Positions 35,355 through 64,000 of a stretch of 64,000 nt of DNA are shown in pieces (positions within the stretch are counted from its first letter, which is position 1; each line of letters opens with the position of its first letter). The translations under genes were made by a program, and so were the position numbers. Origin of the DNA: Enterobacter sp. BIGb0383. Its GTDB lineage: Bacteria; Pseudomonadota; Gammaproteobacteria; Enterobacterales; Enterobacteriaceae. Location: contig NZ_RJKQ01000002.1 in NCBI RefSeq assembly GCF_003751845.1, forward strand, positions 1,460,668 to 1,524,667. The letters are read 5' to 3'. Below the pieces are notes generated by a model. That model was not told the origin of the DNA and did not search any database. It saw only the letters and a program-made list of their open reading frames with translations.

Positions 35355-35679
35355 AACAATTTCCCTTCATTGAATGAATGGAGAGTTACCTGAAAAGGAT
35401 CCAGGCGGGGTTGAGTATACACAACTAAAGCAGGCTGTTTGCGGCGTGTCTAAATAGCGAAGGGGTTTTAGGATAAATGAACGGGGAGTAAATTCGGGGT
35501 ATTTTATTGAAGTAAAAACCAAACAAAATCAAATGGATAAAATACAAACATCAACAGCACATATCGGTATATTCCGAAAATGGCAGAAAATAAAACGGTG
35601 GGGTTTTATATTTTTCAGAAAAAGCTCAGCGTTGAATTTCACCTAAGAACACAGGCAACAAGAATCTTCTGATAAAAAT

Positions 35680-35706
35680 AATGCCGGTAATATACCGGCA
35701 TTATTT
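35680..35706 (-). terminator. Rho-independent terminator of pgi
   Basis: GCCGGTATATTACCGGC perfect palindrome followed on the minus strand by ATTATTTTTATC. Confidence 0.8.
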
Positions 35707-35717
35707 ATCAGGTTTAA

Positions 35718-37367: not shown

Positions 37368-37659
37368 TAGCAATACTCTATTTTGATTTAAAAATGTCGA
37401 CTGAGGTCGATTGTAGCGCCTGACGAATGTTTTGCGATGGATTTTGTGCGCTTACCCCGATGCCCTTTGAAGCCCGGTCAAAAACGCTGCAAACACGAGG
37501 GTTATTAGTCATTTTTCTCGCCGCCCTCCGACCATGAAAAATACGCATAATCGTAACGTTGACTCTCCTGCGCGAACCCTTTATTTATACCTGTGCTATC
37601 TGCTTTATGCAGATAAGTGTATTACCAACGCTTTTCGCGCTAAGAAAGGTGCTGGTAAT

Positions 37660-37885
37660 TGCCAGAAGAGGCGCGTTGTCCAGGTAAAATGTCGAGAAGC
37701 CGGTTCATTGAAGACATTGGAGGGGGAACAACGCCGAGGTGGTGAATGCCCGGCAGCTTTCACTATCGGCTACAGGGGCTGAATCCTCTGGGTTGTCACC
37801 AGAAACGTTCCCGGTCGGTCGTTTCTTGCCCGCGAAAATAACGGATGCGGGCAGACAAGGTGGAGCACTTCTGGGTGTACCGTAG
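37660..37885 (+). ncRNA. Lysine riboswitch (L-box) in the lysC 5' leader
   Basis: AGAAGAGGCGCGTTG...CCGAGGTG...ATCGGCTACAGGGGCTGAATCCTCTGGGTTGTCACCAGAA...GGTGGAGCACTTCTGGGTG closely matches the E. coli lysC leader/L-box conserved segments. Confidence 0.8.
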
Positions 37886-39328: not shown

Positions 39329-39336
39329 AAGAAAAG

Positions 39337-39368
39337 GCCCGGCAGCAGAAGCTTTCCGGGCCTTTTTT
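39337..39368. terminator. Bidirectional terminator between lysC and the rtcB-operon end
   Basis: AAAAGGCCCGG-...-CCGGGCCTTTTTT hairpin flanked by A/T runs on both sides. Confidence 0.75.
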
Positions 39369-40152
39369 ACGCCATCACCGTCTGATACAGCAGATGGTCT
39401 AGCTCCCTGACGTTTCCGCTGCGGCTCTCAGGCAGGGCATCCGCCACTTCCCCTCGTGCCAGCTCTGCCTGGATAAACGCGTGCAGCAGCGGCCTGCGCG
39501 GACCGTACTGTGCTTCCCCGGCTTTCTGCTTTAAAACCAGCAATGCATCTATCTCAGCCCGCAGAGGTGCGGTCAGATCGCTACCGTCAAGCAGCGTGGC
39601 GAAACGCATCGGCGGCATTCCTTTCCCGGCCTCTATCCAGCGAACCGCCAGCAGCGGACGCAGCACGTAGAAATACTTCTTCAGCCGCACCTCTGCATCC
39701 TGCAGGTAGCCACGAAAGTTCTTTTTCGCCATCGAGTAGTAGTGCCAGCGCGCCCTGACCGGTGAAAACCAGTGCGGAACCTGAGCACGCAGCGCGGCCA
39801 GTACCGCATCGTCCTGCTGATAGACCACCGGCGAATCCAGCCACTCGATCAGCGTCGGGTTCGCGCCTTTCAGCAGCCCCAGCGCCTTGCGCCACTCCCA
39901 GCCGCAGACGTCCAGTTCATCGTCTATCGGCAGTTCGATCACATCCCGCTGCGGCTCCACGCGCAGATACCACTTCGGCGGATGTACATATAAAAACCGC
40001 ACGTCGTAGTCGCTATCCGGGGAGGCGAACCCCCAGCCGCGACTGCCGGACTCGCAGGCGTAGAGCACCCTCACGCCATATTTTTTCTCGACCTCCTGCA
40101 ATGCCTGCCTGACGCGTGCGCGCATGGTGGCATCAACACTCTCATATTCCAT
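39367..40152 (-). CDS. Pol-beta-superfamily nucleotidyltransferase (COG3541-like), 261 aa, last gene of the rtcB operon
   Basis: Minimal NTase motif ACESGSRGWGFASPDSDYDVRFLY (GS...D.D); ATG 40152 with AAGGA RBS 5 nt after the rtcB stop; occupies the position of rtcA. Confidence 0.6.
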   Translation of the reverse strand: MEYESVDATMRARVRQALQEVEKKYGVRVLYACESGSRGWGFASPDSDYDVRFLYVHPPKWYLRVEPQRDVIELPIDDELDVCGWEWRKALGLLKGANPTLIEWLDSPVVYQQDDAVLAALRAQVPHWFSPVRARWHYYSMAKKNFRGYLQDAEVRLKKYFYVLRPLLAVRWIEAGKGMPPMRFATLLDGSDLTAPLRAEIDALLVLKQKAGEAQYGPRRPLLHAFIQAELARGEVADALPESRSGNVRELDHLLYQTVMA

Positions 40153-40157
40153 TTCTC

Positions 40158-41387
40158 TTATCCTTTTACACACACCACCTGGCGCAGGGTATGGACCACT
40201 TCGACCAGCGCTGACTGGGCCGTCATCACGGCATCAATGTCTTTGTACGCCATCGGGATCTCATCGATCACGTCGCTGTCTTTACGGCACTCTACGTGCG
40301 CGGTGGCGCGGATCTGATCTTCAACGGTAAAACGTTTTTTCGCGGCGGTACGGCTCATAGTACGTCCCGCACCGTGGCTGCAGGAACAGAAGCTCTCTTC
40401 GTTGCCAAGCCCGCGCACAATAAAGCTTTTCGCGCCCATCGAACCGGGAATAATCCCCATCTGCCCTTTCTGCGCCGAGACCGCGCCTTTACGCGTGACC
40501 AGGACTTCTTCACCAAAGTGCGTCTCTTTCTGGACATAGTTATGGTGGCAATTCACCGCTTCCTGCTGCGTCATAAAGGGCTTAGTGACAATTTTTGATA
40601 GCGCGGCCAATACCCGCGACATCATCACTTCCCGATTATGACGGGCGAAATCCTGTGCCCAATCAACGGCTTCCAGATAGTCGTCATAGTGCAGACTGCC
40701 CTCCTGGAAGTACGCCAGATTTCTGTCCGGCAGGTTGGCAATATGCTGCTGCATATCCTGCTGAGCAAGGGTGATAAACACGTTGCCAATCGCATTACCT
40801 ACGCCACGCGACCCGCTGTGGAGCATCACCCATACCCGCTGCTGCTCATCCAGACAGACTTCAATAAAGTGGTTACCGGTTCCCAGCGTTCCCAGATGCT
40901 GGTGATTATTGGTCTTCAGCAGCTGCGGATATTTATCCGTCAGGCGTTTGAAACGCGGGGCCAGCTGCGCCCAGTGACTGTCCACGATATCTGGCGGCGT
41001 TTCCCACGAACCTTTATCCCGCTTCGAACGGTTCACCGAGCGCCCGTGCGGCACCGCCTGCTCAATCGCGCTACGCAGTCCGCTCAGGTTATCGGGCAGA
41101 TCCCCGGCCAGCAGGGAGGTGCGCACGGCAATCATTCCGCAGCCGATATCCACACCCACCGCCGCAGGGATAATGGCCCCTTTGGTCGGGATCACGCTGC
41201 CGATGGTTGAACCTTTACCGAGATGCACATCCGGCATCACCGCCAGATGTTTGAAGATAAAGGGCATTTTTGCCGTATTCAGAAGCTGCTCCCGCGCCTC
41301 CGGCTCCACGGGCACGCCGTGGGTCCACATTTTTACCGGGGCGCTGTTTTCCTGCGCCATCAGCTGATATTCGTTATGCGCCATCAT
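40158..41387 (-). CDS. rtcB: RNA-splicing ligase RtcB
   Basis: 409 aa from ATG 41387; ENSAPVKMWTHGVPVEPEAREQLLNTAKMPFIFKHLAVMPDVHLGKGSTIGSVIPTKGAIIPAAVGVDIGCGM... ~80% identical to E. coli RtcB; AGGAG RBS. Confidence 0.95.
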   Translation of the reverse strand: MMAHNEYQLMAQENSAPVKMWTHGVPVEPEAREQLLNTAKMPFIFKHLAVMPDVHLGKGSTIGSVIPTKGAIIPAAVGVDIGCGMIAVRTSLLAGDLPDNLSGLRSAIEQAVPHGRSVNRSKRDKGSWETPPDIVDSHWAQLAPRFKRLTDKYPQLLKTNNHQHLGTLGTGNHFIEVCLDEQQRVWVMLHSGSRGVGNAIGNVFITLAQQDMQQHIANLPDRNLAYFQEGSLHYDDYLEAVDWAQDFARHNREVMMSRVLAALSKIVTKPFMTQQEAVNCHHNYVQKETHFGEEVLVTRKGAVSAQKGQMGIIPGSMGAKSFIVRGLGNEESFCSCSHGAGRTMSRTAAKKRFTVEDQIRATAHVECRKDSDVIDEIPMAYKDIDAVMTAQSALVEVVHTLRQVVCVKG

Positions 41388-42516
41388 GCGCTCCTTTAAT
41401 GTTAACAAGACCGTGCAGAACCTGATCCAGACCACCGAAGACCGAGATCTTATCGATGCGTTCCGCAACACGCTCCAGAGTTTCCAGTTCTTTCAGTCGC
41501 AGCGCGACCGGGTTGCTTTCCATCACTTTCGCCGTATTCAGCAGCGAACGGGTCGCGGCCGTCTCTTCCCGGCGGCGGATCACATTTGCCTGCGCCGATT
41601 TTTCCGCCTCCACTAACCGCGACAGGATGGTTTTCATCTCGCCGGGCAGGATGACGTCTTTCACACCCAGCGACGCCACTTCAATACCAAAGGCGGCCAT
41701 ACGTTCTGCAACCTGCACGCTCACCACTTCGTCGATAATTTGCTTATCTTCCAGCAGCTCATCAAGCGTACGCGTGCCCACCGCTTCGCGCAGCGCAAAC
41801 TGCAGCTCGCGATAAAGATGGTCCAGCGGTTTGCTCAGTTGAGCAAAGGCGCTCAGCACGTCGGTATAGCGCCAGTTCGCCGCCAGGTTCAGCCGCAGGG
41901 TCACTTTATCTTTGGTCAGGATCTCCTGACCGCTGACTTCCAGCACCTGCAGGCGCAGATCCACCACCTCAGCCTCGACCAGATGGTTCACCTTCCAGTA
42001 ACCGCTCAGACCTGCCGACAGCAGCGCCTGGGTTTCACCATCCACCTTCAGGACACCGACGTGCCATGCCGGAACCTGAACCGTCAGAATAGTATCGCGG
42101 CCTTTGATACTATTACCGCGCTTCGGCTGCAGTACCGCATTGAGGATCTCAGCGGGTACGCTCACCTCACGCGTATCCAGACGGACCAGCTTTAATGTCT
42201 CATCCGCTTTCCAGTACAGGCGACGGGTCGAAGGTGGCAGGATCTCCTGCAATATGCCGTTGCTGTACAGGGCGCCCGCTTCGTTATCTGTCATATCGGC
42301 CACCAGGCAGTATTGCTCAATCCAGCCCGGCTGGAAGCGACGCAGATACTCAGCCAGTCCGGTTTCCACTTCGCTGCCGTCGAGGTTCACCACCCGCACT
42401 TTCGGCACGCTAAACCATGAAAGACGATGTTCACCGCTTTCCAGAACCTGATAGTAATCGCCCTCTTTTGCCAGTAAGCCCAGCTGACCTTTTCGTATTG
42501 TGATTTTCTTTGTCAT
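41374..42516 (-). CDS. SPFH/band-7 (stomatin/flotillin/HflC-like) domain protein without a predicted TM segment, 380 aa, first gene of the rtcB operon
   Basis: SPFH core ...DKVTLRLNLAANWRYTDVLSAFAQL... and C-terminal coiled-coil EAEKSAQANVIRRREETAATRSLLN...; ATG 42516 with AAGGA RBS preferred over GTG 42549; 3' end overlaps the rtcB start by 14 nt. Confidence 0.65.
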   Translation of the reverse strand: MTKKITIRKGQLGLLAKEGDYYQVLESGEHRLSWFSVPKVRVVNLDGSEVETGLAEYLRRFQPGWIEQYCLVADMTDNEAGALYSNGILQEILPPSTRRLYWKADETLKLVRLDTREVSVPAEILNAVLQPKRGNSIKGRDTILTVQVPAWHVGVLKVDGETQALLSAGLSGYWKVNHLVEAEVVDLRLQVLEVSGQEILTKDKVTLRLNLAANWRYTDVLSAFAQLSKPLDHLYRELQFALREAVGTRTLDELLEDKQIIDEVVSVQVAERMAAFGIEVASLGVKDVILPGEMKTILSRLVEAEKSAQANVIRRREETAATRSLLNTAKVMESNPVALRLKELETLERVAERIDKISVFGGLDQVLHGLVNIKGAHDGA

Positions 42517-42622
42517 TCTGTTTTCCTTAATTTTTGCCTTAACGACCACGGATGCAGGGGCGAAGCCGCAGGGGAAACAACGTTTTGCCTGCGACCCGGC
42601 ATCATTACCGGCGGTCGTGAGA

Positions 42623-42647
42623 GGTCATCGTTAACGGCCCGATGACC
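42623..42647 (-). other. Perfect 8-bp palindromic hairpin in the rtcB-operon leader
   Basis: GGTCATCG-TTAACGGCC-CGATGACC. Confidence 0.5.
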
Positions 42648-42674
42648 GGGTACACCTGTTTATCTCTTTGGATA

Positions 42675-42725
42675 GAGGTGCGCGAATACGGGATTCGAAC
42701 CCGTGGAAACCGACTTTTCGCAAAA
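42675..42725 (-). ncRNA. tRNA-like minihelix (acceptor-stem mimic plus canonical T-arm) in the leader of the SPFH-rtcB operon; Y-RNA-like element
   Basis: Minus-strand 5'-tGCGAAAAgtcggtttccACGGGTTCGAATCCCGTATTCGCgCACC: canonical 5-bp T-stem with 7-nt T-loop TTCGAAT, flanked by a ~7-bp acceptor-like helix (GCGAA/TTCGC) but no D or anticodon arms; lies between the sigma54 promoter and the first ORF. Confidence 0.5.
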
Positions 42726-42832
42726 TGTCTTACCGCTGACGGAACGCCCCCCGGAAAACGGCCTCTGCCGTTCCTGGTGCGCCGGCGGGGTGTGTTACCC
42801 CCTGCTATTCCAGCGTGCTGACGGGAGAGTTA

Positions 42833-42850
42833 TTGCCAGAAGCGTGCCAG
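42833..42850 (-). promoter_or_regulatory. Sigma-54 (-24/-12) promoter driving the SPFH-rtcB-NTase operon
   Basis: Minus-strand cTGGCACGCTTCTGGCAa vs consensus TGGCACG-N4-TTGCW (GG and GC correctly spaced); divergent from the rtcR enhancer-binding-protein gene, same arrangement as E. coli rtcR/rtcBA. Confidence 0.75.
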
Positions 42851-42984
42851 AATTGATAAACAACAGGATTAATTTTTATATAATTGATAATTAATGATTT
42901 TATTTTTAACGCATTGATCTGTCGTTGTCAGGCAACGCTTTATTTTTTATCTTTAGTTATCGCAATTTATCTTCAGGGATAAAA
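42851..42984. promoter_or_regulatory. AT-rich rtcR-rtcB intergenic control region (candidate RtcR UAS / IHF site / rtcR promoter)
   Basis: Direct repeats AATTGATAA (42851 and 42882), inverted repeat CGTTGTCAGGCAACG (~42935-42949); AT-rich unlike flanks. Confidence 0.35.
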
Positions 42985-44571
42985 ATGAAACGTCGCGTAG
43001 TGATTGGCGTACTGGGAACGGTGCTGGATAAGCGTGGAAAACGGCATAATCGCTTCAAAAAATGGCGGCCGACCGTCGGCCTGTGTCAGCAGCCCGATTT
43101 TCCCGTCGACCGTCTTGAGCTTTTGCATCAGCCGCGGGATGCAGGCCTGGCCCGTCAGCTTGCAGAGGATATTGACCAGGTGTCGCCGCAGACCAGCGTC
43201 TGCACGCATTCGGTCGAGATTCACGATCCCTGGGATTTCGAAGAGGTGTACGCTGCCTTTCTTGATTTCGCCAGCCGTTATCCGTTCGATACGGAAAACG
43301 AGGAGTACCTGGTCCATATCACCACCGGGACACACGTCGCGCAGATTTGCTGGTTCCTACTGACCGAAGCCCGCTATCTTCCCGCCAGCCTGCTGCAAAC
43401 CGGCCCCGCACCAAAAGATGCAGCCGACGAGGCCATTGCCGCCGGAAGCTGCTCGGTGATTGACCTTGATTTAAGCCGCTACGCCACCCTGACCAGCCGC
43501 TTTCAACGTGAACAGCAGCAGTCGGTATCGTTTCTTAAATCGGGGATTGATACCCGCAACGCGACCTTTAACCGTCTGATCGACCAGATAGAGCGCGTGG
43601 CGCTACGCTCTACCGCGCCGATATTGCTGACCGGCCCGACCGGTGCGGGCAAATCTTTCCTTGCAAAGCGCATCTTCCAGCTGCGCCAGTCCCGACATCA
43701 GGTTCAGGGTAAACTGGTCGCGGTAAACTGCGCCACCCTGCGTGGGGATAACGCGATGTCGACCCTGTTTGGTCACGTGAAAGGCGCGTTTACCGGCGCG
43801 CTCCAGGCTCGTACAGGACTGCTGCGCGAGGCGGATGGCGGGGTGTTATTTCTCGATGAGATCGCCGAGCTGGGCCTCGACGAGCAGGCGATGCTGCTCA
43901 AGGCCATCGAAGAGAAAACCTTTTTCCCGTTTGGCTCGGATAAAGAAGTCCACAGCGATTTTCAGCTGATCGCAGGGACGCATCGAAATATGCCGCAGTG
44001 GGTCGAAGAAGGCCGTTTCAGGGAGGATTTGTACGCCCGCATCAATATGTGGACCTTCGCGCTGCCGGGACTGGCAGAGCGGCGGGAAGATATCGCCCCG
44101 AATATCGAGTACGAGCTTGAACGCTATGCCCGGGAACAGCAGACGCAAATTCGCTTTGATAAGGGCGCTCGCGAGCGCTATCTGGCCTTTGCCTGCTCGC
44201 CCCATGCCGCATGGAGAGGTAATTTCCGGGAACTGAGTACGTCTATTGCCCGAATGGCGACGATGGCGGAACAGGGACGTATCAATGACGACCTGGTCGA
44301 CGAGGAGCTGCAGCGCTTAACGTATCACTGGCAGGCGTCGCCTGAGCAAACCACCCTGCCGGTGGATCTGAGTACGCTCGATCTTTTTGACCGCCACCAG
44401 CTTGAAACGGTGGTGGCCGTCTGTCGACGCTGCCATACATTGTCGGAGGCCGGGCGTGAGCTGTTTTCCGTCTCACGGCAGAAGAAAGCAAACCCCAATG
44501 ATGCCGATCGTCTGCGCAAGTATCTCGCCCGTTTTGGCCTGAGCTGGGAGAGCGTGCGCGGCGCAACATAA
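42985..44571 (+). CDS. rtcR: RtcR sigma-54-dependent transcriptional activator (CARF sensor domain - AAA+ - HTH)
   Basis: 528 aa from ATG 42985 (MKRRVVIGVLGTVLDKRGKRHNRFKKWRPTVGLCQQ...) collinear with E. coli RtcR; Walker A GPTGAGKSFLA; GAFTGA sigma54-interaction motif; C-terminal DADRLRKYLARFGL. Confidence 0.93.
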   Translation: MKRRVVIGVLGTVLDKRGKRHNRFKKWRPTVGLCQQPDFPVDRLELLHQPRDAGLARQLAEDIDQVSPQTSVCTHSVEIHDPWDFEEVYAAFLDFASRYPFDTENEEYLVHITTGTHVAQICWFLLTEARYLPASLLQTGPAPKDAADEAIAAGSCSVIDLDLSRYATLTSRFQREQQQSVSFLKSGIDTRNATFNRLIDQIERVALRSTAPILLTGPTGAGKSFLAKRIFQLRQSRHQVQGKLVAVNCATLRGDNAMSTLFGHVKGAFTGALQARTGLLREADGGVLFLDEIAELGLDEQAMLLKAIEEKTFFPFGSDKEVHSDFQLIAGTHRNMPQWVEEGRFREDLYARINMWTFALPGLAERREDIAPNIEYELERYAREQQTQIRFDKGARERYLAFACSPHAAWRGNFRELSTSIARMATMAEQGRINDDLVDEELQRLTYHWQASPEQTTLPVDLSTLDLFDRHQLETVVAVCRRCHTLSEAGRELFSVSRQKKANPNDADRLRKYLARFGLSWESVRGAT

Positions 44572-45633: not shown

Positions 45634-45660
45634 TGCCGGATGGCGTTTGCGCCATCCGGT
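45634..45660. repeat. REP-like palindromic hairpin between the convergent BASS gene and higA
   Basis: GCCGGATGGCG-TTTG-CGCCATCCGGT (resembles the enterobacterial REP core GCCGGATG...CATCCGGC). Confidence 0.5.
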
Positions 45661-46085
45661 TATCGGGAACGAGGTTCGATAAACACCTCAGCCGATACGT
45701 TAAAACGTTCAGCTAAAGCTCTGATATGATCGACGGTCAGATTGCGCTCTCCGCTGAGAATGCGGCTTACCAGCGACCGTTGGCCGATCTCATTCGTAAA
45801 TGAAGACTGATTTAATCCGTACTGATCCATCAGGACGCGAAGAGCCGCCACGCCACGCGGCAGCGCCTCAATACGCGCATTAAAGGCGGCGAGTTCGGGG
45901 TCATTGTTTTCATAACGGTCAATTTTCGCCATCAGCAATTCGATCAATGGGCTATCAGGGGCCTGCTCCATCAGACGTTCAATCACGTCCAGCGCCTGCT
46001 CATAATCTTGTTTGCGGGTACTGCGTCCTAAAAAGGGAATCAGCGTCACCAGTTCATCAGCCGCTTTAATCGCATGATTAATCAT
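45660..46085 (-). CDS. higA: HigA antitoxin (HTH, XRE family)
   Basis: 141 aa; ...RVLMDQYGLNQSSFTNEIGQRSLVSRILSGERNLTVDHIRALAERFNVSAEVFIE aligns with E. coli HigA (...RTLMDQYGLTLSDLPEIGSKSMVSRVLSGKRKLTLEHAKKLATRFGISPALFID). Confidence 0.85.
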   Translation of the reverse strand: MINHAIKAADELVTLIPFLGRSTRKQDYEQALDVIERLMEQAPDSPLIELLMAKIDRYENNDPELAAFNARIEALPRGVAALRVLMDQYGLNQSSFTNEIGQRSLVSRILSGERNLTVDHIRALAERFNVSAEVFIEPRSR

Positions 46086-46393
46086 TCTTTTGTCTCCCGG
46101 TAAAACCTCACCAGTTTGTCATACACCGCATGGGGAACGATGTGCTTCACAAAAATCCGCCCATACTCAAAATCGGCAAAAAACAGCAGTCGCAGATTAT
46201 TTCCCCCGACATTAATTACCCACCATTTGTCCCTGAACTTCATTCTGTCCAGGCTGGGAAAATCATGCCTCAGCTCATCCGGACTTTCATAAGATGTGCT
46301 TTTGAGGATCTTGTAAACGGCGTCCAGGGCCAGGGCATCATTAGGAAAACCTCTTGCCGCATCGTTGAACGGCCTCCTTGATATAACATGCAT
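46082..46393 (-). CDS. higB: HigB mRNA-interferase toxin (RelE/ParE superfamily)
   Basis: 103 aa; MHVISRRPFNDAARGFPN...FPSLDRMKFRDKWWVINVGGNNLRLL... aligns with E. coli HigB (MHLITQKALKDAAEKYPQ...FPSLDNFKYLDKHYVFNVGGNELRVV); 4-nt overlap with higA. Confidence 0.85.
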   Translation of the reverse strand: MHVISRRPFNDAARGFPNDALALDAVYKILKSTSYESPDELRHDFPSLDRMKFRDKWWVINVGGNNLRLLFFADFEYGRIFVKHIVPHAVYDKLVRFYRETKE

Positions 46394-63564: not shown

Positions 63565-63684
63565 ATGCCTGGCAGTTCCCTACTCTCGCATGGGGAGACC
63601 CCACACTACCATCGGCGCTACGGCGTTTCACTTCTGAGTTCGGCATGGGGTCAGGTGGGACCACCGCGCTAGTGCCGCCAGGCA
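63565..63684 (-). rRNA. rrf: 5S ribosomal RNA
   Basis: Reverse complement is TGCCTGGCGGC...CCCATGCGAGAGTAGGGAACTGCCAGGCAT, essentially identical to E. coli 5S rRNA (120 nt). Confidence 0.97.
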
Positions 63685-63793
63685 AATCTTTTATGCATGA
63701 AATGAACTAAAAGCTTCATTTCCGCAAATTCTTTATCTGTAATCAAGCTGAAATCGATGTCTGTCTCTCACACCAAAACATCTTTGGCGTTGT

Positions 63794-64000
63794 AAGGTTA
63801 AGCCTCACGGTTCATTAGTACTGGTTAGCTCAACGTATCGCTACGCTTACACACCCAGCCTATCAACGTCGTAGTCTTCAACGTTCCTTTAGTGAGCTCA
63901 AGGCTCAAGGGAGAACTCATCTCGGGGCAAGTTTCGTGCTTAGATGCTTTCAGCACTTATCTTTTCCGCATTTAGCTACCGGGCAATGCCATTGGCATGA
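63794..64000 (-). rRNA. rrl: 23S ribosomal RNA, 3' end (continues beyond the window)
   Basis: Reverse complement ends ...GCGTAGCGATACGTTGAGCTAACCAGTACTAATGAACCGTGAGGCTTAACCTT, the conserved 23S 3' terminus. Confidence 0.95.

Follow-up and report, generated by a model that had tools for sequence, protein, structure and literature searches.

Predicted structured leader RNA and soluble SPFH/Band-7 protein in an RtcR-associated rtcB-rlaP operon of Enterobacter sp. BIGb0383

Why should an SPFH/Band-7 protein be encoded together with an RNA ligase and a nucleotidyltransferase, opposite the gene for the RNA-repair activator RtcR? The question is raised by a 64,000-nucleotide (nt) stretch of DNA from Enterobacter sp. 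BIGb0383 (contig NZ_RJKQ01000002.1), referred to here as the window; coordinates are window positions. The open reading frame list and the junction sequences place four complete genes at 39367-44571: rtcR on the + strand and, on the - strand, the genes for the SPFH/Band-7 protein, the ligase RtcB and the nucleotidyltransferase RlaP (Table 1). The locus is probably an RNA-repair operon under RtcR/sigma-54 control, belonging to a Band-7/tRNA-like RNA/RtcB/RlaP class and working through an SPFH-RNA scaffold. In itself the operon is no new discovery, the class having been predicted by comparative genomics in 2016 and being known from papers citing Burroughs & Aravind 2016. New here are a predicted, covariation-supported leader RNA outside Rfam, a mini-helix in place of the cloverleaf found in other taxa, rtcB-less variants in Klebsiella and Citrobacter, and an SPFH N-terminus built of three beta modules.

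Profile searches identified all four products. RtcR matched the NCBIfam RNA_repair_RtcR equivalog with 838 bits (cut-off 650) and Pfam RtcR/CARF at 1e-82 over positions 1-183 of 183, followed by Sigma54_activat at 1e-49, and carries the Walker A and GAFTGA motifs. RtcB matched Pfam RtcB (E = 7e-132), aligns with E. coli RtcB along its whole length at 73% identity, and retains intact metal-binding and His-GMP motifs (VDIGCG, GNHF, HSGSRG, CHHN, SHGAGR). RtcB joins 3'-phosphate or 2',3'-cyclic phosphate ends to 5'-OH ends. The last gene, described in an earlier note on this DNA as a Pol-beta nucleotidyltransferase, encodes a member of Pfam RlaP (PF10127, labelled 'RlaP, RNA repair pathway DNA polymerase beta family'; E = 5e-94, 1-248 of 249 profile positions) with a GS-x10-DSD form of the GS...DxD motif at residue 36; a search of the window RlaP against PDB sequences gave no match. 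Two start codons of the earlier open reading frames were corrected: the true start of rtcR is probably ATG 42985, not the TTG at 42925 of the mechanical reading frame, and ATG 40152 appears the best start for rlaP, with GTG 40173 less likely. The absence of RtcA and Rsr/Ro60 had also been claimed. A tblastn search with E. coli RtcA (E <= 1e-3) gave no homologue anywhere in the 64-kb window, rlaP occupying the 3' position, and no further reading frame that might encode Rsr/Ro60 (TROVE) lies between rtcR and lysC.

From this anatomy, the leader, SPFH gene, rtcB and rlaP are predicted to form one compact sigma-54 transcription unit. The rtcB ATG at 41387 lies inside the SPFH frame, whose stop codon occupies 41374-41376, giving the 14-nt overlap that had been noted earlier (11 nt from the alternative ATG at 41384), while rlaP starts 5 nt beyond the rtcB stop with its own Shine-Dalgarno sequence. 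An AAGGA Shine-Dalgarno stands ahead of the SPFH ATG, and no terminator-like site was found within the operon on the - strand; the hairpin beyond rlaP is probably a bidirectional terminator. Upstream, TGGCACGCTTCTGGCA has a single mismatch against TGGCAC-N5-TTGCW. Chance alone would account for the bare pattern in the window (2 found, 2.95 expected), and the site is credible because it is conserved (all 10 Enterobacterales loci examined have it between -310 and -365 relative to the Band-7 start codon), because TGGCACG-N4-TCGC equivalents are seen in Pseudomonas, Burkholderia and other loci, and because it is similar to E. coli PrtcBA, TGGCACGACGGTTGCA. An intact rtcR divergent from a sigma-54 promoter, as originally described, is therefore upheld. 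The AT-rich region between them has sigma-70-like hexamers on the + strand at 42857-42884 and presumably contains the promoter of rtcR and the sites that RtcR binds. The E. coli rtcR-rtcBA locus shares orthologous RtcR and RtcB and a similar divergent sigma-54 promoter, but has RtcA and a leader of about 45 nt, lacks the SPFH gene and RlaP, and lies at a different chromosomal site (malT/glpR rather than lysC/rluF). Megablast against 5,426 complete E. coli genomes did not detect the window operon, the sole match being the canonical rtcB at approximately 75-77% identity.

The survey of gene neighbourhoods that the earlier note had suggested drew on an SPFH family of 543 clusters at 50% identity (E < 1e-30) and covered 80 genome loci and a family alignment, plus 4 close relatives, scored with the window proteins, E. 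coli RtcA and ARAGORN. Linkage of the SPFH gene to rtcB and rlaP recurs: among the 62 loci with full flanks, rtcR was divergent in 28, rtcB lay downstream in 27, rlaP was present in 19 and rtcA in 9. The full form, seen in Pseudomonas (L010, L013), consists of rtcR facing two tRNA-like genes, Band-7, RtcB, RlaP and RtcA. The RtcA-less form of the window also occurs in Burkholderia (L012), P. entomophila (L020) and Kosakonia (L004), and the absence of RtcA is a common variant of the class. In Klebsiella, Citrobacter, Superficieibacter, Lonsdalea and Mangrovibacter, rtcR faces the leader, Band-7 and RlaP, and rtcB is absent; in the rtcB-less loci (L001, L002, L003, L005, L006, L007, L008, L040) RlaP follows Band-7 by 5-55 nt, and in Klebsiella and Citrobacter this operon and that of the window share the lysC/rluF site. 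Providencia (L009) represents the reverse case, with Band-7 and RtcB and without RlaP. The constant core in Enterobacterales is RNA, SPFH and RlaP.

Outside the Enterobacterales, tRNA-like genes detected by ARAGORN or by R1, a covariance model built from 35 b7a-tRNA-type genes, precede Band-7 by 230-460 nt, in the same orientation, in most to nearly all beta- and gamma-proteobacterial loci. The usual layout there is of two T-arms about 72 nt apart, with cloverleaf units exceeding the Rfam tRNA threshold. Even among the 26 of 62 loci without any Rtc gene, most still have upstream tRNA or tRNA-like genes. The linkage of Band-7 to rtcR, rtcB, rlaP and tRNA-like genes thus holds across proteobacteria and beyond.

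The class has a literature of its own. Passages of two papers (bioRxiv 10.1101/312249; PMC13404743) credit Burroughs & Aravind 2016 with RtcB operons that have a Band-7/MVP-homologous protein and a predicted b7a-tRNA, and one of them notes that the b7a-tRNA, predicted in silico, had yet to be validated by experiment. The arrangement is thus not undescribed, as the earlier note had it: the Band-7/b7a-tRNA/RtcB class is in these papers, and homologous loci are found in Pseudomonas, Burkholderia, Kosakonia and numerous further taxa, several of them likewise lacking RtcA. The module was also called uncharacterised, which stands only in part, since the class has been described in silico and RlaP biochemistry and structure appeared in 2025, while the roles of the SPFH protein and the RNA are still at the prediction stage. 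As passages of a December 2025 preprint put it, Burroughs & Aravind 2016 coined the name RlaP for a family adjoining RNA ligases (PMC12776372). In that preprint two Pseudomonas rtc-operon RlaP enzymes were characterised biochemically and one structurally; those of P. fluorescens and P. aeruginosa, whose genes stand between rtcB and rtcA, add 1-2 nucleoside monophosphates onto an RNA 3'-OH and favour damaged RNA as substrate, and passages of the same source report better aminoacylation in vitro of repaired, over-trimmed tRNA (PMC12776372). Furthermore, the P. aeruginosa SPFH protein PaFlo8 (PA14_60630) sits within the rtc locus, and a 2026 paper on the SPFH proteins of this species stated that PaFlo8-type proteins are absent from Enterobacterales (PMC13086221). 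Contrary to this statement, homologues are present in the window, where the closest protein match is the Enterobacter sp. BIGb0383 entry itself (100% identity), and in many Citrobacter, Klebsiella, Kosakonia and Enterobacter genomes. The window protein is 55-59% identical to Band-7 proteins of Pseudomonas and Burkholderia.

Compared with this class, the window shares the SPFH gene upstream of rtcB, RlaP, the divergent rtcR with its sigma-54 promoter, and a T-loop RNA between promoter and Band-7. It differs from the Pseudomonas loci L010 and L013 in lacking RtcA, as does Burkholderia L012, and from the class generally in the RNA: a mini-helix stands in place of the cloverleaf, one T-arm is present instead of two, and a third domain is specific to Enterobacterales.

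The RNA is contained in a predicted structured leader of approximately 305 nt between the promoter and the SPFH gene, which the earlier note overlooked. Alignment of 9 Enterobacterales leaders yielded an RNAalifold consensus of 51 pairs with 97.2% of cells paired. Both sides change in 22 of these pairs, compared to 8.2 ± 2.0 in shuffles (0/500 shuffles reached 22), and sliding the 3' partners left 1-4 both-side changes and 35-49% pairing, values to be read with the caveat that the structure was predicted from the very alignment that was scored. The covariation indicates that the window leader is under structural selection. The fold of the single sequence is unexceptional (z = -1.4), comparative analysis alone being informative. 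ARAGORN found no tRNA in the window leader or in any Enterobacterales relative, Rfam (E <= 1) returned no family for the leader, YrlA, YrlB and Y_RNA included, and a search of the whole window at gathering thresholds gave no leader family either. No U-tract follows any of the leader helices.

Three domains were distinguished in the leader. A covariance model of Domain 1, built from Enterobacterales sequences alone, gave 17 further matches in 0.9 Mb, 15 of which lie directly upstream of tRNA-like units in beta- and gamma-proteobacterial Band-7 loci (Pseudomonas, Accumulibacter, Aquabacterium and others). In the cross-order alignment, which is fitted to the model, 20 of 27 pairs are compensatory and 94.3% of cells are paired, as against 39-48% when slid; by this comparison Domain 1 is conserved across orders of beta- and gamma-proteobacteria. 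Domain 3 lies at the other end of the leader, about 25 nt ahead of the ribosome-binding site. Ten pairs of its helices 5-7 change on both sides, and outside the Enterobacterales its covariance model (R3) found a convincing match in Gilliamella (L021) only.

Between the two lies the tRNA-like mini-helix, in which R1 matched the T-arm only (42688-42705, 16 bits, E = 0.016). Its P4 stem is GCGAA/UUCGC in the window, Kosakonia, Superficieibacter and Mangrovibacter, and covaries to GAUA/UAUC in Lonsdalea and to GAUGA/UCAUC in Klebsiella and Citrobacter (both without the linker). A cloverleaf with GTCAGCGGTAAGAC forming the D-arm and a tetraloop capping the anticodon arm AUUUU-GCGA-AAAGU was considered and ruled out by covariation, which pairs GUCAGC with the upstream GCUGG (P1) and GCGAA with UUCGC (P4). 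Beta-proteobacterial leaders possess a 'mini-tRNA' (6-7-bp acceptor stem, short linker, T-arm) directly 5' of the cloverleaf, and that of Undibacterium (L062) scores 31 bits against the Rfam model of the tmRNA tRNA-like domain. On sequence and predicted structure, the window mini-helix is homologous to the first of these two tRNA-like units. Because the beta-proteobacterial mini-tRNA adjoins the cloverleaf on its 5' side, the Enterobacterales leader looks like the ancestral leader minus the cloverleaf unit. With tmRNA and mini-helices the element shares an acceptor-like stem on a canonical GGGUUCGAAUCCC T-arm and the lack of an anticodon arm; it differs from tmRNA in having neither tag frame nor 3' CCA, in its 5-bp stem, in its location inside an mRNA leader, and in the absence of an Rfam match.

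Two further observations concern the RNA genes of other taxa. In several rtcR-linked b7a-tRNAs, a GNRA/UNCG tetraloop (GAAA, UCCG, UUCG) on the anticodon stem replaces the 7-nt loop; ARAGORN calls these genes 'tRNA-???' with 2-nt anticodons, and they are unlikely to be decoding tRNAs. In many rtcR-less loci, Band-7 lies directly after, or inside, a same-strand array of 10-25 tRNAs. The tRNA L-array paper ties such arrays to rtcB, and Band-7/SPFH is absent from that paper (PMC8421152).

The second unusual component is the SPFH protein. Its core (Pfam Band_7, E = 2e-25) is nearest to stomatin, in keeping with the NCBI name 'slipin family protein', and HflK/HflC profile matches are weak and far under cut-offs. 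The description of a 380-residue SPFH protein without a transmembrane segment proved accurate: Kyte-Doolittle means over 19 residues peak at 1.33, and a hydrophobic N-terminal helix is lacking in the AlphaFold model. Profile self-comparison with hhalign assigned residues 3-61, 71-131 and 144-188 to a single beta module present three times (98.4-98.9% probability), the third copy being the start of the SPFH domain. This repeat array replaces the membrane anchor of canonical SPFH proteins: the core is shared with stomatin, HflK/C and QmcA, but the N-terminal membrane helix or hairpin of those proteins is missing. A sub-family of 500-560 residues was also observed (P0122, P0125, P0127, P0128, P0132 and others; L009, L021, L030, L052, L059), whose members align to the query in 2-3 stretches, as extra N-terminal repeats would produce, and the number of beta modules seems to vary across the family. 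No NfeD partner gene lies beside the SPFH gene, its neighbours being rtcB and rlaP.

The SPFH fold and long helix match stomatin, HflK/C and MVP, which form rings or cages. The likeness to vault MVP appears to be one of fold (beta repeats, an SPFH-like domain, a long helix). Since neither Pfam Vault nor MVP_shoulder matched any of 55 family members (E <= 1), 'MVP-like' is used for an architectural, fold-level resemblance, not for demonstrated orthology. The 'bacterial MVP homologs' of bioRxiv 10.1101/872010 were considered as relatives and set aside as another family, being full-length MVP homologues of gliding bacteria.

Taken with work on related systems, these components suggest how the operon might function, and it is this explanation that we favour as probable. 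Damaged RNA, e.g. tRNA halves with 2',3'-cyclic phosphate, would be sensed by the CARF domain of RtcR, by analogy with E. coli and Salmonella RtcR; passages of two papers describe RtcR as responding to damaged tRNA fragments or tRNA halves (PMC7790460, PMC10159003). RtcR would then switch on the sigma-54 promoter, and with it the leader, SPFH, rtcB and rlaP. The addition of 1-2 nt to a 3'-OH by RlaP could restore nucleotides trimmed off a cleaved tRNA. The soluble SPFH protein may oligomerise into a ring or cage, as do other SPFH proteins and MVP, and could bind leader-derived RNA, in which the mini-helix would mimic the top half of a tRNA. Such an SPFH-RNA particle might serve as scaffold or cofactor presenting damaged tRNA-like substrates to RlaP and RtcB, in the manner proposed from Ro60/Y RNA in Salmonella. 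The Salmonella rsr-yrlBA-rtcBA operon is likewise RtcR-controlled, with a ring-forming non-enzymatic protein and a tRNA-mimicking non-coding RNA upstream of rtcB, and the Ro60-YrlA analogy for Band-7 and its RNA is drawn in a passage of bioRxiv 10.1101/312249. The window differs from it in that the protein is SPFH and not TROVE, no YrlA or YrlB match is present, and RlaP stands where RtcA does in Salmonella.

Several points weigh against this explanation. Co-transcription is read from operon anatomy, and RNA binding, cage formation and a repair role are attributed to the SPFH protein by analogy with other systems. No phenotype resulted from deleting PaFlo8 when growth, virulence, motility, biofilm and oxidative stress were assayed, ribotoxin stress lying outside those assays (PMC13086221). 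The window has the mini-helix only and no cloverleaf b7a-tRNA, so that the RNA cofactor may act differently or purely in cis. The 3'-OH product of RlaP is not joinable by RtcB (PMC12776372), and a cyclase, kinase or phosphatase that could bridge the step from RlaP to RtcB is missing from the operon. The rtcB-less sister operons of Enterobacterales imply that ligation may not be central, or not obligatory in cis. Finally, passages of PMC9650030 indicate that activation of E. coli RtcR needs RtcA along with RtcB, yet RtcA is absent from the window.

That the leader is solely a cis-acting 5' untranslated riboregulator, sensing tRNA or a repair intermediate or setting mRNA stability, with no partnership in trans with the SPFH protein, is an alternative which we consider unlikely but worth weighing. 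It would fit the incomplete tRNA of the window, the position of the whole element between promoter and Shine-Dalgarno sequence, and the closeness of the clade-specific Domain 3 to the ribosome-binding site, a frequent arrangement in regulatory leaders. The lack of a U-tract after the helices, however, leaves no intrinsic attenuator, and other taxa hold at this position full cloverleaf genes above the Rfam threshold, which would be expected to be excised by tRNA processing. The 26 Rtc-less loci argue in the same direction, since tRNA-like genes accompanying Band-7 there tie the RNA to the protein and not to the regulation of rtcB. Less likely still is a module devoted to conflict or defence more than to repair, where RlaP and an SPFH-RNA complex would modify, sequester or decoy RNAs, for instance as a tRNA mimic soaking up anticodon nucleases, with RtcB optional. 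The incompatibility of RlaP products with RtcB and the absence of rtcB from the otherwise identical operons of five enterobacterial genera could be explained in this way, as could the position of Band-7 beside long tRNA arrays in other taxa, such arrays having been proposed as sponges or anti-defence elements (PMC8421152; passages of PMC12803027). Against it, PADLOC defence models matched RtcR alone and none of SPFH, RtcB and RlaP, RtcB is a full-length E. coli orthologue translationally coupled to SPFH, and the improved aminoacylation of repaired tRNA reported in PMC12776372 points to repair.

A third alternative, in which the SPFH protein does ordinary work as a membrane-microdomain scaffold or protease modulator and is merely located in an rtc locus, is very improbable. 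The 'slipin' name, the stomatin-like core and the weak HflK/HflC matches would be accounted for, but the latter are far below cut-off, three beta repeats occupy the N-terminus in place of a transmembrane or hairpin anchor, and NfeD is missing from the neighbourhood; moreover, the linkage to rtcR, rtcB, rlaP and tRNA-like genes is conserved, and the gene is coupled to rtcB. A bolder form of the repair-scaffold explanation is possible, though doubtful at present: a processed multi-domain leader, its Domain 1 shared from Enterobacter to Pseudomonas and Accumulibacter and joined to T-loops, may form with the SPFH protein a soluble, vault-like ribonucleoprotein, and this particle together with RlaP, not RtcB, would be the core of the system, as the rtcB-less Klebsiella and Citrobacter operons suggest. 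If so, the particle would represent a bacterial equivalent of the vault, and tractable enterics would harbour a tRNA-surveillance machine of a new kind.

The locus bears on the pairing of an SPFH/MVP-like protein with a tRNA-like RNA at a time when the function of vaults and vault RNA in eukaryotes is still unsettled, and on the acknowledged puzzle of how RlaP, which makes 3'-OH ends, cooperates with RtcB, which requires a 3'-phosphate. With a single promoter, a single structured RNA and only two or three genes, the system is compact, and it lies in easily manipulated enterics. For annotation, a 'slipin family protein' and a 'nucleotidyltransferase domain protein' beside rtcR should be recognised as one RNA-repair module, with a conserved structured RNA, as yet without an Rfam model, in its 5' region.

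Table 1. Positions of the operon components and leader domains in the window, and of RNA features at homologous loci.
Feature	Position	Strand	Description
rtcR	42985..44571	+	sigma-54-dependent activator; CARF, AAA+ and HTH domains; 528 residues from ATG 42985
Divergent control region	42850..42984		AT-rich; between rtcR and the sigma-54 promoter
Sigma-54 -24/-12 promoter	42834..42849	-	TGGCACGCTTCTGGCA; assigned by pattern and conservation
Structured leader RNA	42517..42822	-	~305 nt; predicted; start placed ~12 nt past the -12 element
Leader Domain 1	42733..42816	-	predicted three-way junction; P1 42814-42810/42739-42735; P2 42805-42799/42790-42785; P3 42784-42767/42762-42740
tRNA-like mini-helix	42682..42721	-	predicted; P4 GCGAA/UUCGC (42721-42717/42686-42682), 12-nt linker, T-arm ACGGG-UUCGAAU-CCCGU (42704-42688)
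Leader Domain 3	42541..42619	-	predicted long interrupted hairpin; P5-P7, 42616-42584 pairs with 42576-42544
SPFH/Band-7 ('slipin') gene	41374..42516	-	380 residues; three tandem beta modules, stomatin-like SPFH core, long C-terminal helix
rtcB	40158..41387	-	3'-phosphate/5'-OH RNA ligase, 409 residues
rlaP	39367..40152	-	RNA-ligase-associated Pol-beta nucleotidyltransferase, 261 residues from ATG 40152
G+C-rich hairpin with U-tracts	39329..39366		AAAAGGCCCGGAAAGCTTCTGCTGCCGGGCCTTTTCTTTT; 38 nt separating the convergent rlaP and lysC stops
tRNA arrays (L022, L031, L035, L061, L064, L071, L083)	~0.4-4.5 kb upstream of Band-7 start
Tetraloop b7a-tRNAs	L012:5670-5742, L016:5671-5743, L013:5607-5749, L018:5692-5763, L029:5635-5708

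Further features were observed around the operon. Approximately 1.1 kb past rtcR is a HigB (RelE-like) toxin gene (46082-46393, - strand; Pfam HigB_toxin, 7e-21) overlapping by 4 nt an HTH_3 antitoxin gene (45660-46085, - strand), so that a ribosome-dependent mRNA endonuclease module adjoins the RNA-repair operon; no such pair was observed at the Klebsiella or Kosakonia loci. The whole-window Rfam search at gathering thresholds returned only a lysine riboswitch, STnc430 and ribosomal RNA (rRNA). The riboswitch (RF00168, 94 bits, 37658-37878, + strand) lies upstream of lysC as expected, and several mechanical open reading frames there are consequently not genes. The small RNA STnc430 (69 bits, 35550-35712, + strand) is directly downstream of pgi, and a 5S rRNA gene with the 3' end of a 23S rRNA gene (63567-64000, - strand) occupies the right edge of the window.

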